Shown here one piece after another: positions 4,783 to 59,148 of a DNA stretch of 64,000 nucleotides; position 1 is the first letter of the stretch; the number at the start of each line of letters is the position of its first letter. The translations under genes and the position numbers were made by a program. A model generated the notes under the pieces. That model saw nothing but the letters and a program-made list of their open reading frames with translations, did no database searches and was not told the origin of the DNA. Origin of the DNA: a bacterium (GTDB taxonomy: Bacteria > Verrucomicrobiota > Verrucomicrobiia > Chthoniobacterales > JAFAMB01); contig JBKPCS010000094.1 of the NCBI GenBank assembly GCA_046727495.1, positions 16,029 to 80,028 of the forward strand. Reading direction: 5' to 3'.

Positions 4783-4810
4783 CCGTCGACCGTCGACCGT
4801 TGGCCGTTAT
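4783..4810. repeat. tandem heptamer array CCGTCGA CCGTCGA CCGTTGG CCGTTAT
   Basis: Read directly from the sequence in the spacer between the methyltransferase stop (4855) and the lpxI start (4742). The same CCGTCNN unit builds the arms of the 49835-50048 element. Confidence 0.7.
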
Positions 4811-4854
4811 GGGAGCCCTGGAGAAGCCATCGGCTAAATCAGCGTCATCCAACG

Positions 4855-5604
4855 CTACAAAACGAAACCCGCGAGGATCGTCAGAGGCAACTCAATGACT
4901 CTCTTAGCCGCTGGATCACCCCAGGCCTCCCGAAAACGAGGAACAAACTCTACGATCGGATCTGTCCCGGTGGCCGCTTTGAACCGGGCCACAGCGGACC
5001 AACTATGTGCATAACCCAAGAACTGCGCGAGATCCCATTGCTTGATCAGGCTGATTTTGGGCGCAGCTAGCTTTTCAAATGGGAACGGGATCGATCGGTA
5101 GTCTTCTGCGGCATGCCTGCGTCCTTCAGGCCAATACGAGCCTATTTTGTTGGAATCCAGTTCCCGGAGCACCGAGCGTAGACTTGGACTGACCTCTTTC
5201 ATCTTGTGGTAAACTAGAGCCGCAAAAAGCGCTCCAGGTTTTGACACTCGACGAACCTCGGCATAAAACTCGGAGAAGCGGAACCAGTGCAAAGCTTGCG
5301 CCACAAATACGAGATCAACGGTTCCACTCTCAATTGAGCTTTTCTCTGCTGGTTCCAATCGGTACGACACGTTCACTAATCGCTCGGCGAGCTGGAGCTG
5401 TTTCTCGCTAATATCGGTTCCAATGACTCGTTCGAAACGGTTGGCTAGATCTCGCGTGGCTTGCCCGTTTCCGCATCCGCAATCCCAAGCAAGCTGTCGC
5501 GCCGGTGCTGTTTGAGCGAGCCAATCAAAGACTTCAGCAGGATAAGTCGGGCGAAACTCTTTGTAAGCGTCGGACTGCTGAGAAAAGTGGTCGGCAGGTA
5601 GCAT
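4855..5604 (-). CDS. class I SAM-dependent methyltransferase (Methyltransf_11-like)
   Basis: 249 aa with SAM-binding motif I LAWDCGCGNGQAT followed by an acidic residue (GTDISE). Confidence 0.75.
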   Translation of the reverse strand: MLPADHFSQQSDAYKEFRPTYPAEVFDWLAQTAPARQLAWDCGCGNGQATRDLANRFERVIGTDISEKQLQLAERLVNVSYRLEPAEKSSIESGTVDLVFVAQALHWFRFSEFYAEVRRVSKPGALFAALVYHKMKEVSPSLRSVLRELDSNKIGSYWPEGRRHAAEDYRSIPFPFEKLAAPKISLIKQWDLAQFLGYAHSWSAVARFKAATGTDPIVEFVPRFREAWGDPAAKRVIELPLTILAGFVL

Positions 5605-5620
5605 GATGTGTATACGGAGG

Positions 5621-5716
5621 GGTTCGAATCTAGAAGCTCGAATCTGGAATCTAGAAGCGTACCTGGCGCATCTCGCGTTTCTATATTCGAGATTCTAGTT
5701 TCGAGATTCGAAATTC
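5621..5716. repeat. imperfect hairpin with GAATCT-based repeat arms, overlapping the ispE 3' end
   Basis: Left arm ggttcgaatctagaagctcgaatctggaatctagaagcg; right arm cgcgtttctatattcgagattctagtttcgagattcgaaattc is its approximate reverse complement. The right arm encodes the last ispE codons (AENFESRN). Confidence 0.55.
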
Positions 5717-6543
5717 TCCGCTGGATTCAGCCGCCCTACCCAATTCCAGATTTTATCTCCAAACTTGGCTCTAAAACGCTCCACCAGCGCCCTCCCACCT
5801 GCTTCATCGTTCACCACCGCAAACATCGTCGATCCGGATCCTGACATTGACGAAACTATCGTCTCCGGCTGCTCTCTCAGCCAATCCTTAATCACGGGCA
5901 AAAGGAGGTATTTCCGGAAGACCGATTGCTCTAAATCGTTGCGCAGCGTTCCCCATTTCGTCTCCACCGACTCTCCTTTCTTTTGGTTGTCAGGCAATTG
6001 CGTATAAGCCTGGTACGCGGAGGCGGTTGAAATACCAAACTCAGGTTTGAAAAGGCAGATCCAGAGACCTCTATCAAACTCCTTTTGCTCCATGACTTCA
6101 CCTCGTCCGGTGCACCAGGCAGAGCGAGCCTCAACGAAGAACGCAACATCCGAACCAAGTCTGGCGGCTAATTCGCGCTGCCGCGGTATATCAAGCGGTT
6201 CTCGGTGTATTTGATTCAGTAAGCGAAGTGTTGCGGCTGCGTCAGAGCTGCCCCCACCGAGACCCGCGCCCATCGGTATGTTCTTTTCAAAAGTGATGCG
6301 GTAAGCGGCGCGAATCCCAGTAACCTCAGCAAAGAGATCCCTAGCCCGGACCACGAGATTGGATTGATCGTTTCGCAACTCCGAGACGTTCGCTGAAACC
6401 GAATCCTTCTTTGCTGCTTCGATCTCAACCGAATCATAGAGTGCGATCGGCAACATCCATGTGGTTAGATCATGGAAGCCGTCTGCGCGACGACCGACGA
6501 TCTCCAGCATCAGATTGATCTTTGCCGGGGTCAGGGTTTTCAT
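5695..6543 (-). CDS. ispE: 4-(cytidine 5'-diphospho)-2-C-methyl-D-erythritol kinase
   Basis: 282 aa with AKINLMLEIVGRRADGFH at the N-terminus and the GHMP kinase motif PMGAGLGGGSSDAAA. Confidence 0.9.
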   Translation of the reverse strand: MKTLTPAKINLMLEIVGRRADGFHDLTTWMLPIALYDSVEIEAAKKDSVSANVSELRNDQSNLVVRARDLFAEVTGIRAAYRITFEKNIPMGAGLGGGSSDAAATLRLLNQIHREPLDIPRQRELAARLGSDVAFFVEARSAWCTGRGEVMEQKEFDRGLWICLFKPEFGISTASAYQAYTQLPDNQKKGESVETKWGTLRNDLEQSVFRKYLLLPVIKDWLREQPETIVSSMSGSGSTMFAVVNDEAGGRALVERFRAKFGDKIWNWVGRLNPAENFESRN

Positions 6544-56238: not shown

Positions 56239-56410
56239 ACTAAAATCGACCCTCTCCGTCTTAAGCTAACGCGCATAGCCACGACCCGCATAAAGCTTGA
56301 GTCACCGATGATGCGGCTCCTGTTCACATGCATCTCGATTAACCTCAAAATTCCCCAATCTATGGGACCCACCCCCCTCTGAACCACAACATCTAGTATA
56401 CCTTAGTTGC

Positions 56411-56439
56411 TTGCAAAATCCTCCTAAACAGCCTAAAAT
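56411..56439 (+). promoter_or_regulatory. putative gyrB promoter
   Basis: TTGCAA (56411-56416), a 17-nt spacer, then TAAAAT (56434-56439), about 60 nt upstream of the gyrB ATG. Based on sequence pattern only. Confidence 0.3.
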
Positions 56440-56499
56440 GATGCCCTAGTTCAGTAGGCGTTTTGGGCCGTCTTTGTACTCGAGGCCCAGCTCTCAGAT

Positions 56500-59082
56500 A
56501 TGTCAGATATTTCGAATTACGGCGCGGCGCAGATTGATAAACTCGAAGGGTTAGAGGCGGTCCGGAAGCGCCCGGGAATGTACATAGGCGATCCTGATGA
56601 ACGCGGATTGCATCATTGCGTCTTCGAGGTCCTGGATAACTCCATCGACGAACACCTCGCGGGATTTTGTTCTCGAATTGATGTGACCGTCCATATTGAT
56701 GGTTCTGTTTCGATCCGAGACAACGGGCGCGGGATTCCGGTGGAAATGCATCCCAAGTTCCAGATGCCGGCAATTGAGTTGGTCCTTACCAATCTTCACG
56801 CGGGCGGTAAATTCGGACAGGGCGCCTACAAATATTCGGGCGGTCTTCACGGAGTGGGAGCCAAGTGCGTAAACGCGCTATCAGAGTGGTTCAAGGCTGA
56901 GGTGACCCGCGACGGAAAACTTTATCTAATCGTTTTTTCCAGAGGCAAAACCATCCGCAAACTGGAGGTGATCGGCGAGGTCCAGAATAAGAAGCTGTCC
57001 GGTACCTCGATCACCTTTTTACCCGACCCCGAGATCTTCACCATTACGACTGAGTTCAAGTTCGAGCTGCTCGCACCGCGGCTGCGCGAGCTTGCGTTCT
57101 TGAACAAAGGCCTGGAGATCCACCTGATCGACGAGCGAACGGAACCGCACCGGAAGGAGACCTTTCTCTACAAAGACGGGATCCGGGAATACGTGAAAGA
57201 GCTTGGTGTTAACAAGCAATTGATTCACCCCGAACCGATTGTGGTGAGCGGGATGCGCGAAGCGCTGGTTGATGACAAACCGGAGACCACCTACGTAGAT
57301 GTCGTTCTTCAGTACACCGACGCGTACACCGAGCAGATCCAGTGCTTTGCCAATTCGATTGCGAACATCGACGGTGGGACCCATTTAGAAGGGCTGAAGT
57401 CCGGCTTGACCAGCGCGATCAAGAACTACGCCAAGGCAAATAATCTTCTGAAAGAAAAAGATCCGGAGCTTACCGGCGACGATTTACGAGAGGGACTCGT
57501 TTGCGTTCTCAGCATTAAACTGACGAACCCACGATTCAGCTCTCAGACCAAAGGTAAGTTGGTGAACAACGAGGTAAAGCCGGTTGTTCAATCGGTCGTC
57601 TACGAAGGGTTGGGACGGTATTGCGAAGAGAACCCGGCCGTCGCCAAAAGAATCATCGACAAATGCTTGATGGCGGCTCGCGCTCGCGAAGCTGCGCGGA
57701 AGGCCCGCGAAGCAGTCCGAAAAACGGCATTAACCGGAGGCGGACTTCCAGGCAAGTTGGCCGATTGTTCGGAGCGCGATCCCGCGCTGACCGAGTTGTA
57801 TATCGTGGAAGGCGACTCCGCCGGCGGCTCGGCCAAACAGGGAAGAGATCGACGATTCCAAGCGATTCTGCCGATCCGGGGGAAGCTTCTGAATGTTGAG
57901 AAAGCCCGGCTCGACAAGGTGCTGCAGAACCTTGAAATCCAAACAATGATCACGGCGATCGGGACAGGCATCGGCGATGGAGACGTGGAAGGCTCATTCA
58001 CCCTTGAGAAACTGCGTTACGGCCGAATCATCATCATGACCGACGCGGACGTGGACGGGTCACATATCAGAACCCTGCTACTTACGTTCTTTTACCGTCA
58101 GATGCCGGAGCTGGTCCGGCGCGGCCACATTTATATTGCGCAACCCCCGCTTTATCAGATCAAGCGAAAGAAACGGGAAGAATACGTGGATGACGATGCG
58201 CAACTGAACAAGATCCTGATCTCGCTGGGCGCCGAAGAAGTGACCCTGAAACATCTGGTAGATGGTCGCGAATTTACTAAGGAGCAGCTTAGCGTGGTAC
58301 TCGATTTACTGGAGAAGCTCGCGCGATTGAGCGAGTCGATTCGCCGACACGGCGGAGATTTCGAAGACTATCTTTCGCACCGCGAACCGACGTCCGGAAA
58401 GCTGCCTGAGTATCTCGTCAAGATTCGCGAAGGTAACAATGAGTACGTCAGATATTTTCACGACGAAGACGCGCTCCGGGACTTCGCCAGCCAAAACCCG
58501 GACCTTAATCTTTATGAGGATGAAGTGCCACTTGGCGACGGTGAGAGTCCGGACCTGGAGGGCGCCGCTGCGCCAGCGACGGCGACAGCAGAGCGTCGCT
58601 CGCCCACCAATGGAAACGGTACGGCGCCTGTTTCGCCGCATTTGCGCAGACGAGCGCGACGAGTGGAACTTCATGAGTCGAACGCGGTTCTCAAAGTCTT
58701 CCAGGAACTCGAAAAGCGTGGCATGACTGTTGACCATTACTCGGCCAGTGATGAACCCCTTTTTGAGATTATCGAGGGCGAAGGAGAAAGAGCGGTCGTA
58801 ACCCCTTTGTTTTCCATCCCGAAGATTCTGGATTCGATTAAGGAGATCGGCCGGCGCGGAGTACAGATCAAGCGATTCAAAGGCTTGGGAGAAATGAACG
58901 CAAAGGAGCTCTTTGCGACGACCATGGACCCAGTCAGGCGCAAACTGTTACGCGTCGATCTAAACGAGAATAACGCAGTTGCCGCGGACAAGATGTTTAC
59001 GATCCTGATGGGAGATGTTGTCGAGCCGCGACGCGCCTTCATTGAAGACAACGCCCTCAATGTCAGGAACCTCGACGTTTAG
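56500..59082 (+). CDS. gyrB: DNA gyrase subunit B
   Basis: 860 aa with [45 protein letters not shown] and [10 protein letters not shown]. There is a low-complexity insert around residues 660-720. Confidence 0.97.
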
Positions 59083-59148
59083 CGTTTGGCGTTTCGCGTT
59101 TCGCGAAGAGAAGAACCCAGGAGCGCTAAACGCGAAACGCCAAACGCT
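59081..59148 (+). terminator. 25-bp-stem hairpin of GCGTTTN heptamers between gyrB and gyrA (terminator/attenuator-like)
   Basis: agcgtttggcgtttcgcgtttcgcg, an 18-nt loop, then cgctaaacgcgaaacgccaaacgct, with 24 of 25 positions complementary. It starts inside the gyrB TAG, is followed by ttt, and ends 5 nt before the gyrA ATG. Confidence 0.5.

Follow-up and report, generated by a model that had tools for sequence, protein, structure and literature searches.

Hairpins with tandem-repeat arms at gene boundaries of a Chthoniobacterales contig

The intergenic spacers of the Chthoniobacterales contig JBKPCS010000094.1 harbor hairpins whose two arms are themselves tandem arrays of a short unit. We analyzed 64,000 nt of this contig (positions 16,029 to 80,028; here, the window), a gene-dense stretch with a G+C content of ∼53%, and found seven clear cases as well as an eighth, weak one (7271-7345), which folds well as a hairpin but has arms that are hardly repetitive (Table 1). 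Their stems are 20 to 46 bp and their loops 6 to 282 nt. Intergenic heptamer repeats are already on record from Xanthomonas and cyanobacteria, and these elements are a variety of them that is made locally and occurs at unusual density. We favor, with moderate confidence, an explanation in which simple sequence repeat (SSR) arrays grew on the spot by replication slippage, have had their arms kept complementary, and form stem-loops at gene boundaries.

Such hairpins are far more frequent than in shuffled controls, as a preliminary description made from the sequence alone had anticipated. Our scan accepted ungapped inverted repeats of 16 nt or longer with a complementarity of 78% or more and a loop no longer than 300 nt, and it counted them as repeat-armed when both arms reached a self-identity of 0.7 for any period between 3 and 12. 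The 36 spacers (8.3 kb) yielded 10 inverted repeats, 5 of them repeat-armed, compared to 0.12 and 0.000 in 200 dinucleotide shuffles; the whole window yielded 12 and 5, compared to 3.0 ± 1.8 and 0 in 60 shuffles. Repeat arms occur in about half of the long spacer hairpins, and long hairpins are the rule in this genome's spacers, because 13 of 36 fold at z < −3 (ViennaRNA versus dinucleotide shuffles). The species is also represented on short contigs of six Joint Genome Institute metagenomes (99.7 to 99.9% identity), and we compared 11 strain-level contigs with the window; the elements reappear, base for base, in independent assemblies from the six samples, including 21055-21147 in contig L162. 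Together with the absence of repeat-armed hairpins from all 260 shuffles, this leaves a negligible chance that we are looking at fortuitous similarity or at assembly artifacts such as chimeric fold-back joins, even though some metagenome contigs do end within palindromes (L001 at 59127, L162 at 25489, and L163 at 15663). In practice, the palindromes appear to break short-read assemblies.

Tandem Repeats Finder (TRF) recovered all 14 arrays of the preliminary description, at the same position or within a few bases of it. Array periods in the window are 6 to 9, mostly 7 and next 8 and 6, with 2.7 to 6.7 copies; an inverted-repeat search found an inverted partner for 12 of the 24 arrays. The earlier count of at least ten repeat-armed hairpins was too high: seven are true, or eight with the weak case, and about half of the elements are one-armed. 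The window has eight one-armed intergenic arrays, namely six that had been listed plus 20321-20358 and 22425-22463. The six listed ones fold no better than shuffles (z of +1.8 to −2.1), and folding revealed no hidden inverted partner for the one-armed arrays.

The elements are tied to gene ends (flanking genes were named from Pfam and from gene calls carried by strain contigs). Between same-direction genes, hairpins either overlap the stop codon or begin 0 to 8 nt past it, and they reach to within 0 to 11 nt of the next start; in the gyrB-gyrA, ispE-methyltransferase, and pfkB-HAD pairs, the palindrome fills the spacer. This stop-to-start stem geometry holds for 59081-59148, 5615-5720, and 15463-15808, for the gyrB hairpins of three relatives (L002, L005, and L006, introduced below), and for loci L023, L137, and L143. 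Much of what had first been said about position was borne out: the stop codon is included in the first repeat unit at gyrB (TAG), pyrG (TAG), and DUF1697 (TGA), lies in or overlaps an arm at ispE and phhB, and precedes the array by 8 nt at the ACT-domain gene, while repeat sequence encodes the last codons of the oxidoreductase gene and of ispE. Two elements lie between convergent genes (pyrF/GNAT and RNase P RNA/phhB) and two, as described, in divergent regions (hemL and SDR).

We also agree that the elements are not simply terminators. They resemble intrinsic terminators as stem-loops just past stop codons, and both 7271-7345 and the gyrB hairpins have short T runs behind them; the class is matched in part by 59081-59148 and 7271-7345. 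Intrinsic terminators, however, have a GC-rich stem, a loop of 3 to 8 nt, and a U-tract, whereas the loops of the elements measure 6 to 282 nt, most elements lack a U-tract, and some end 0 to 11 nt ahead of a start codon or lie in divergent regions. A consensus scan found 28 intrinsic terminators in the window compared to 23.7 expected, which is no enrichment over shuffles. An Rfam scan at gathering thresholds and a tRNA scan of the window explain no element; the only hit was RNase P RNA (49314-49797).

We compared orthologous spacers in the gyrB region and in the block syntenic with L002 (44.7 to 61.7 kb of the window). Comparator loci total ∼2.2 Mb; by GyrB identity, the relatives are L002, a Verrucomicrobiota metagenome-assembled genome (MAG) at 87%, L003 and L004, Chthoniobacterales MAGs at 81 to 85%, and further Chthoniobacterales, Spartobacteria, and Udaeobacter MAGs at ∼71%. 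The arrays differ between related genomes. The gyrB-gyrA spacer carries (GCGTTTN)3.5, an 18-nt loop, and the inverse array in the window; (GTTTTGR)6, a 118-nt loop, and the inverse array in L002; (AATGACG)4, a 29-nt loop, and the inverse array in both L005 and L006 (71%); only (CGCCC)3.6 in L003 (81%); and nonrepetitive sequence in L004 (85%). In more distant Verrucomicrobiota (62 to 70%), this spacer is 12 to 45 nt long. The hairpins of the window, L002, L005, and L006 all begin at the stop codon, either overlapping it or 0 to 3 nt past it, and stop 5 to 17 nt short of gyrA, so a repeat-armed hairpin recurs at an orthologous boundary while its unit turns over. Since the window unit NGCGTTT and the L002 unit TGRGTTT match in 5 of their 7 positions, in each arm alike, their relationship looks like descent with concerted change, with independent origin as the alternative.

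Elsewhere in the syntenic block, 49835-50048 is absent from L002, where the small hairpin that flanks it occurs once; the window element is an insertion relative to L002. L002 has a heptamer-armed hairpin of its own in the bactofilin-oxidoreductase spacer. Repeat-armed hairpins or arrays are also found upstream of hemL in L083, L085, L091, L097, L099, and L143, those of L097 and L143 being hairpins, and the GAGGAC-armed hairpin of L085 resembles 8361-8418; the metagenome scan with hemL returned no close relatives (≤74% identity). An exact-sequence look-up of the methyltransferase protein gave no match. The claim that the unit differs from locus to locus holds in that no window unit is shared across the ∼2.2 Mb, but within the window GCGTTTN is found at both 18867 and 59081, as degenerate copies at 15515-15758, and in the ribosomal protein L22 gene at 41819, and the nonamer arrays at 30513, 49069, and 54645 form one family with a common GACATCGCCG. 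The units of L002 and L005 are private as well, except for one AATGACG array in L091.

The density of paired arrays is lineage specific. Counted as TRF arrays of period 5 to 12 with an inverted partner, they number 18.8 per 100 kb in the window, 4.9 in Chthoniobacterales-like loci, 3.4 to 3.7 in hemL-anchored metagenome loci, 0.8 in other Verrucomicrobiota (L014-22), and 1.7 in other phyla, making the window ∼11 times denser than the last. Outside the window, 33 of 104 arrays of period 7 or 8 are paired, versus 18 of 247 with periods 6, 9, and 12. Contigs from Pyrinomonadaceae and unassigned contigs show the same geometry, with starts 1 to 33 nt past a stop codon and ends 7 to 17 nt ahead of a start.

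Slippage was observed among strain contigs as a whole-unit copy change, seen as a single event in a single array: one GCGTTTG unit of the pyrG array (18889-18895) is gone in L162 and kept in L165, and this is the sole array length change. The strain contigs show 87 unique single nucleotide polymorphism (SNP) positions across 29.8 kb of coding sequence and 19 (5.1 per kb) across 3.7 kb of other intergenic sequence, but the 950 nt of array and hairpin arms have none, compared to ∼4.8 expected at the intergenic rate (Poisson P ∼0.008). Arms are conserved relative to loops at this level: the sole SNP of 8361-8418 is in its loop (8387), and three more (15668, 15673, and 15678) are in the center of 15463-15808.

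According to the explanation we favor, short units, usually of 7 nt, would be duplicated head-to-tail by replication slippage in unconstrained spacer DNA. The seed may often be local gene-end sequence: the terminal GACGTTT-AG of gyrB runs on into AGCGTTT-GGCGTTT-CGCGTTT, and the pyrG terminus also continues into its array. The array would then come to exist in an inverted copy, and selection for pairing, or templated correction of one arm by the other, would keep the arms complementary while each gains, loses, and homogenizes units. Unit variants are mirrored between the arms of 59081-59148, 15515-15758, 5615-5720, the L143 element, and the L002 element with a 21-nt super-period; in these, one arm mirrors the other faithfully as its inverse. 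In L005, L006, L097, L023, and L038, each arm has its own homogenized pattern (8-nt versus 16-nt periods in L097; a more uniform 3′ than 5′ arm in L005 and L006) and complementarity is still 84 to 88%; here, slippage acts within arms. Growth would fill the spacer until halted by constrained sequence, so that elements would start on or just past a stop codon and end a few bases ahead of the next start.

The product would most likely be a long RNA stem-loop at the gene boundary. In same-direction pairs, its outermost base pairs would bring the stop codon and its surroundings together with the sequence immediately ahead of the next start. Transcription would be attenuated by such a stem-loop, or the upstream 3′ end shielded, and the stem would keep the downstream initiation region hidden until a ribosome terminating there opened the outer pairs, which amounts to translational coupling; in its geometry, the stop-to-start stem would suit such coupling.

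Several observations weigh against this explanation. G·U pairs at stem mismatches are as frequent on the antisense strand as on the sense strand (12 versus 13), and hence give no strand-specific RNA signal; about half of the arrays lack a second arm to pair with; the slippage scheme leaves the preference for 7 nt unaccounted for; the two divergent-region elements have no upstream ribosome to open the stem and need no terminator; and the arm SNP deficit rests on ∼5 expected events and could be caused by homogenization or by repeat consensus assembly. Because G·U is not favored over A·C and divergent regions hold two of the elements, a mutational bias that is neutral and specific to the lineage is the main rival: the hairpins would be functionless by-products of replication or repair (∼7-nt slippage plus template-switch inverted duplication), and their anchoring at stop and start codons would mark where purifying selection halts expansion. 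We regard this as possible but somewhat doubtful. It would sit well with the near-equal frequency of one-armed and two-armed arrays, their spilling into coding ends (the oxidoreductase extension and the L22 tail), the lineage-specific densities, the rapid gain and loss among relatives (no L002 copy of 49835-50048; no gyrB hairpin array in L003 or L004), and the attribution of the heptanucleotide excess to polymerase slippage (PMC4679880, PMC4692102). It copes less well with arms that lack strain SNPs where loops and other spacers vary, and with arms that are 80 to 98% complementary even after independent turnover. Long inverted repeats are, moreover, normally unstable in bacteria, and yet a hairpin recurs in the gyrB-gyrA spacer down to 71% GyrB identity. 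If the elements are mutational debris only, they remain of use in marking a replication or repair bias specific to the lineage.

The symmetry of the elements without strand bias might instead reflect a role at the DNA level, through phased sites or cruciform-prone structures for a nucleoid or regulatory protein, or a symmetric divergent-promoter architecture with similar 5′ leaders. The two divergent-region elements, the AT-rich loop of 21055-21147, and a recurrent 21-nt super-period, equal to two turns of B-DNA, are in keeping with such a role. We nevertheless consider it quite improbable: unit sequences are unrelated between loci, arguing against a sequence-specific protein; loops of 16 to 282 nt disfavor cruciform extrusion; and most elements are found in same-direction or convergent gene pairs rather than in promoters. 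A consensus scan of the window found no enrichment of sigma-70-type promoters, this phylum's promoter type being outside the scan.

The insertion of 49835-50048 relative to L002, between directly duplicated 22-nt hairpins, the only flanking direct repeats of any element, brings to mind mobile-element remnants or miniatures, similar to MITEs (miniature inverted-repeat transposable elements) or repetitive extragenic palindromic (REP) sequences, with terminal inverted repeats and subterminal tandem motifs and a taste for gene ends. The long inverted ends of 15463-15808 around a 152-nt center, and the presence of true dispersed repeat families in other window spacers, also point that way. As a general account, we find this very improbable. 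BLAST found no second copy of any element in the window or the other fetched loci. Units differ by locus, so that one transposase could not recognize them, and they run on from the adjacent gene's own terminal sequence; a partial search of the window open reading frames (ORFs) noticed no gene for a transposase or for a REP-associated tyrosine transposase (RAYT)-like protein. A mobile origin would fit 49835-50048 only, and elsewhere private, apparently locally seeded units contradict it.

The preliminary description knew of no described class with this architecture, but repeat-armed hairpins are not new, given the Xanthomonas and heptanucleotide precedents, the paired Xanthomonas arrays being closely similar. 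In two Xanthomonas genomes, Rehm et al. (2015, PMC4692102) found 186 and 183 arrays of the heptamer GGGAATC, mostly intergenic, with 70 and 75 cases of two close arrays placed convergently on opposite strands; array lengths vary by species, and the single or paired type is kept. The same paper mentions an intergenic heptamer, GGGGAYT, in Nostoc. As in Xanthomonas, the window has tandem 7-nt intergenic units and nearby opposite-strand array pairs able to form stem-loops (the seven clear elements), and related genomes differ in array length but keep the single or paired type in a given gene context. The Xanthomonas unit is a single G-rich, quadruplex-capable one at ∼185 sites per genome, whereas window units are private to one or to 2 to 4 loci, lack GGG tracts, and often continue the last codons of the adjacent gene. 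Stop-to-start filling of spacers is a feature of the window undescribed for Xanthomonas, and the phylum is also different.

As summarized in later papers (PMC4692102, PMC4679880), a 2007 survey reported an excess of heptanucleotides among long prokaryotic SSRs, slippage has been the hypothesis for it, and Calothrix has tandem heptanucleotides. The window arrays match the long SSRs (5 to 11 nt) of that summary in a spectrum that peaks at 7, in intergenic location, and in whole-unit copy change; the survey, as summarized, concerns direct repeats, to which the window adds systematic hairpin pairing and gene-boundary geometry. The Calothrix repeats are the cyanobacterial STRR (short tandemly repeated repetitive) repeats, in which a few heptamer unit families are dispersed genome-wide and are known also from inside a variable RNase P RNA helix, and hairpin arms are not a defining feature. 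Window arrays are likewise tandem heptamers in noncoding DNA, but a unit occupies at most 3 to 4 loci in 64 kb and most units are unique. REP sequences and bacterial interspersed mosaic elements (BIMEs) of enterobacteria and pseudomonads have been proposed to protect mRNA 3′ ends, attenuate termination, and mediate differential operon expression (PMC3333891); RAYT transposases spread the REPs, whose sequence is conserved across the family. The window elements resemble REPs and BIMEs as imperfect palindromes in spacers past stop codons; unlike them, they share architecture rather than sequence, have internally repetitive arms, and have no second copy in the window or the fetched loci. In Beggiatoaceae and cyanobacteria, MacGregor (2015, PMC4679880) described direct repeats of the heptamer TAACTGA that lie upstream of start codons, with only one inverted case; one-armed arrays that abut starts, such as the octamer array at 14208-14254, are similar, but the TAACTGA system has a single common unit in direct repeats only, whereas window units vary. 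In term searches, a large inverted-repeat survey (PMC13155455) and a large short-tandem-repeat survey (PMC12699852) showed no passage on tandem-repeat-armed bacterial hairpins, and a survey of DNA structural motifs (PMC4060949) has nothing specific on Verrucomicrobia in this respect. We found no literature description of locus-private, gene-end-seeded units, of stop-to-start filling, or of the elements' density in this lineage and their recurrence, with changed units, at an orthologous boundary.

Should the arms have a function, they would give a soil lineage that is abundant and uncultured a simple, evolvable means of building long gene-boundary stem-loops. The stem would change one 7-nt unit at a time and, because both arms are repetitive, could re-pair in a shifted register after a unit was gained or lost. 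Across phyla, intergenic arrays of 7 to 8 nt are those found as inverted pairs running from stop to start, which seems to be under-appreciated and links the prokaryotic heptanucleotide excess to hairpin biology rather than to phase variation. We think it unlikely that the elements are the Chthoniobacterales form, there the dominant spacer architecture, of an unrecognized cross-phylum class of gene-boundary element, one of stop-to-start hairpins with private 7- to 8-nt repeats and arms evolving in concert, a changed unit spreading to both arms as between the window and L002 at gyrB-gyrA, that would set the relative expression of adjacent genes by translational coupling or operon-internal processing.

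Table 1. Repeat-armed hairpins and one-armed arrays of the window (z, folding energy relative to dinucleotide shuffles; MFE, minimum free energy)
Feature	Position	Strand	Arms or units	Context and folding
gyrB-gyrA spacer hairpin	59081-59148	+	GCGTTTN; arms 59081-59105/59124-59148, 25 nt, 96% complementary	gyrB TAG supplies AG of first unit; gyrA ATG 5 nt past stem; MFE −40.5 vs −21.9 shuffled, z −6.1
hemL-upstream hairpin	21055-21147	+	GAGTGY hexamer arms, 12-nt super-period	divergent region; 3′ arm runs up to the base adjoining the hemL ATG; z −8.6
ispE-methyltransferase spacer hairpin	5615-5720	−	GAATCTN heptamer arms, 45 nt, 80% complementary; 21-nt super-period	ispE stop (5695-5697) within arm, ispE tail arm-encoded; next ATG (5604) 11 nt past stem; MFE z −4.7
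SDR-upstream hairpin	22754-22850	+	each arm, 2 copies of a 21-nt unit containing AGAATACAGGAGA	divergent region between GBBH-like_N gene (22450-22749, minus) and SDR gene (start 22882); z −4.3
pfkB-HAD spacer nested palindrome	15463-15808	+	346 nt; outer arms 15463-15494/15777-15808, 32 nt, 91% complementary; inner CGCCAAGR/CTTTGCGT octamer arms 15515-15560/15713-15758, 46 nt, 87%	starts 8 nt past pfkB stop; ends on A of HAD ATG; spacer z −11.2
Composite element	49835-50048	none	CCGTCNN heptamer arms 49860-49897/49996-50026 around a 98-nt center; flanks, direct duplication of the 22-nt small hairpin AGCCCCGAATGCTTTCGGGGCT	RNase P RNA 3′ end to phhB stop, which overlaps outer arm; spacer z −6.9
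M48 peptidase-OsmC spacer hairpin	8361-8418	−	TCGTCC/GAGGAC hexamer arms	spacer z −5.7
pyrF/GNAT convergent spacer hairpin (weak case)	7271-7345	none	∼2 CGCAGATT copies, one arm only	followed by T-rich run; z ∼−4 on both strands
GCGTTTN array	18867-18905	+	5.4 copies	begins within pyrG TAG; z −2.1
Nonamer array	30513-30557	+		starts within DUF1697 TGA; z +0.5
Nonamer array	49069-49105	+		8 nt past ACT-protein TAG; z +1.8
Nonamer array	54645-54680	−		encodes last residues (RDITDIAGN) of pyridine-nucleotide disulfide oxidoreductase
ACCGTCG heptamer array	4782-4810	−	2.7 copies	methyltransferase stop/lpxI start; z −0.5
Octamer array	14208-14254	−	CACTCAAG (plus strand), 5 copies	directly upstream of start of gene 13410-14210 (limits mapped from L169 gene call)
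Nonamer array	22425-22463	none	GGACCAATG	hemL stop/convergent GBBH-like_N stop; z −0.7
GCGTTTG heptamer array	41819-41859	−	5.9 copies	coding, ribosomal protein L22 C-terminal tail

Some arrays extend into genes. We dropped 41819-41859 as a spacer element because it is coding; it shows that a GCGTTT-type unit can become part of a gene. Ribosomal protein L22 itself (41722-42270, minus strand) has a ∼74-residue C-terminal extension, rich in K, R, A, T, and E and partly encoded by the array. The oxidoreductase ends in ...AEELAPALQTMPASRDITDIAGN, compared to ...AEALA in its L002 orthologue: the window protein has a 17-residue extension without counterpart in L002, the last 9 to 12 residues of which are encoded by the nonamer array. 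In practice, arrays of this kind shift annotated stop codons, as in these two genes. The three related nonamer arrays share one codon register (NAGNADIAENATVA, ENAENAVTADIAG, and RDITDIAGN, in which ADIA and TDIAG recur), which made us consider a common encoded peptide, though we do not claim one; at DUF1697, this register is in frame right after the TGA, which could reflect read-through, a decayed coding tail, or coincidence. The ACT-domain gene (48624-49061) and the nonamer array that follows it have no match in the syntenic L002 block, and the region measures ∼840 nt in the window versus 214 nt in L002 (3820-4034). A 21-nt super-period, equal to three heptamers, recurs at 5677-5717, 18866-18905, 22754-22850, and L002 12552-12597/12715-12757.

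The class A RNase P RNA next to 49835-50048 is 484 nt long, compared to 367 positions in the model, and its variable helices carry large insertions. Its L002 counterpart (3998-4516) has an extra 20-bp perfect hairpin at ∼4352-4441 whose arms are decamer quasi-repeats (CACCCAGCAC/GTGGGGCTGG) and which resembles the heptamer repeats of cyanobacterial RNase P RNA.

Other repeats in the window are of different kinds. A dispersed family of ∼60 to 110 nt occupies four spacers (52305-52407, 56167-56276 on the minus strand, 27171-27231, and 16375-16409 on the minus strand); with its core AATCCGGAGGATTC...GAAGCTTCCAGTCCGGCCAAGCCGGATGGGT, it is a true multicopy element, REP-like or MITE-like, unlike the repeat-armed hairpins. 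The palindrome at 25457-25595 starts on the stop codon of a GH75-like gene and has 39-nt arms that are 90% complementary (MFE z ∼−9); each arm contains a GC-rich subhairpin (GGCGGCAG...CTGCCGCC) rather than a tandem repeat, and a related 45-nt copy lies at 31191-31235. The GH75-like gene carries a perfect in-frame 18-nt unit in 2.5 copies (24214-24258), and the ORF at 28914-29891 an in-frame 30-nt unit in 3.4 copies near its start (28922-29057). In the bactofilin-domain gene (52891-53877), two 165-bp tandem copies (53553-53879) are 94% identical; this is a recent internal domain duplication. Finally, a toxin-antitoxin pair (RES-domain toxin and Xre-like/MbcA-ParS antitoxin; 19005-20149, minus strand) is convergent with pyrG.

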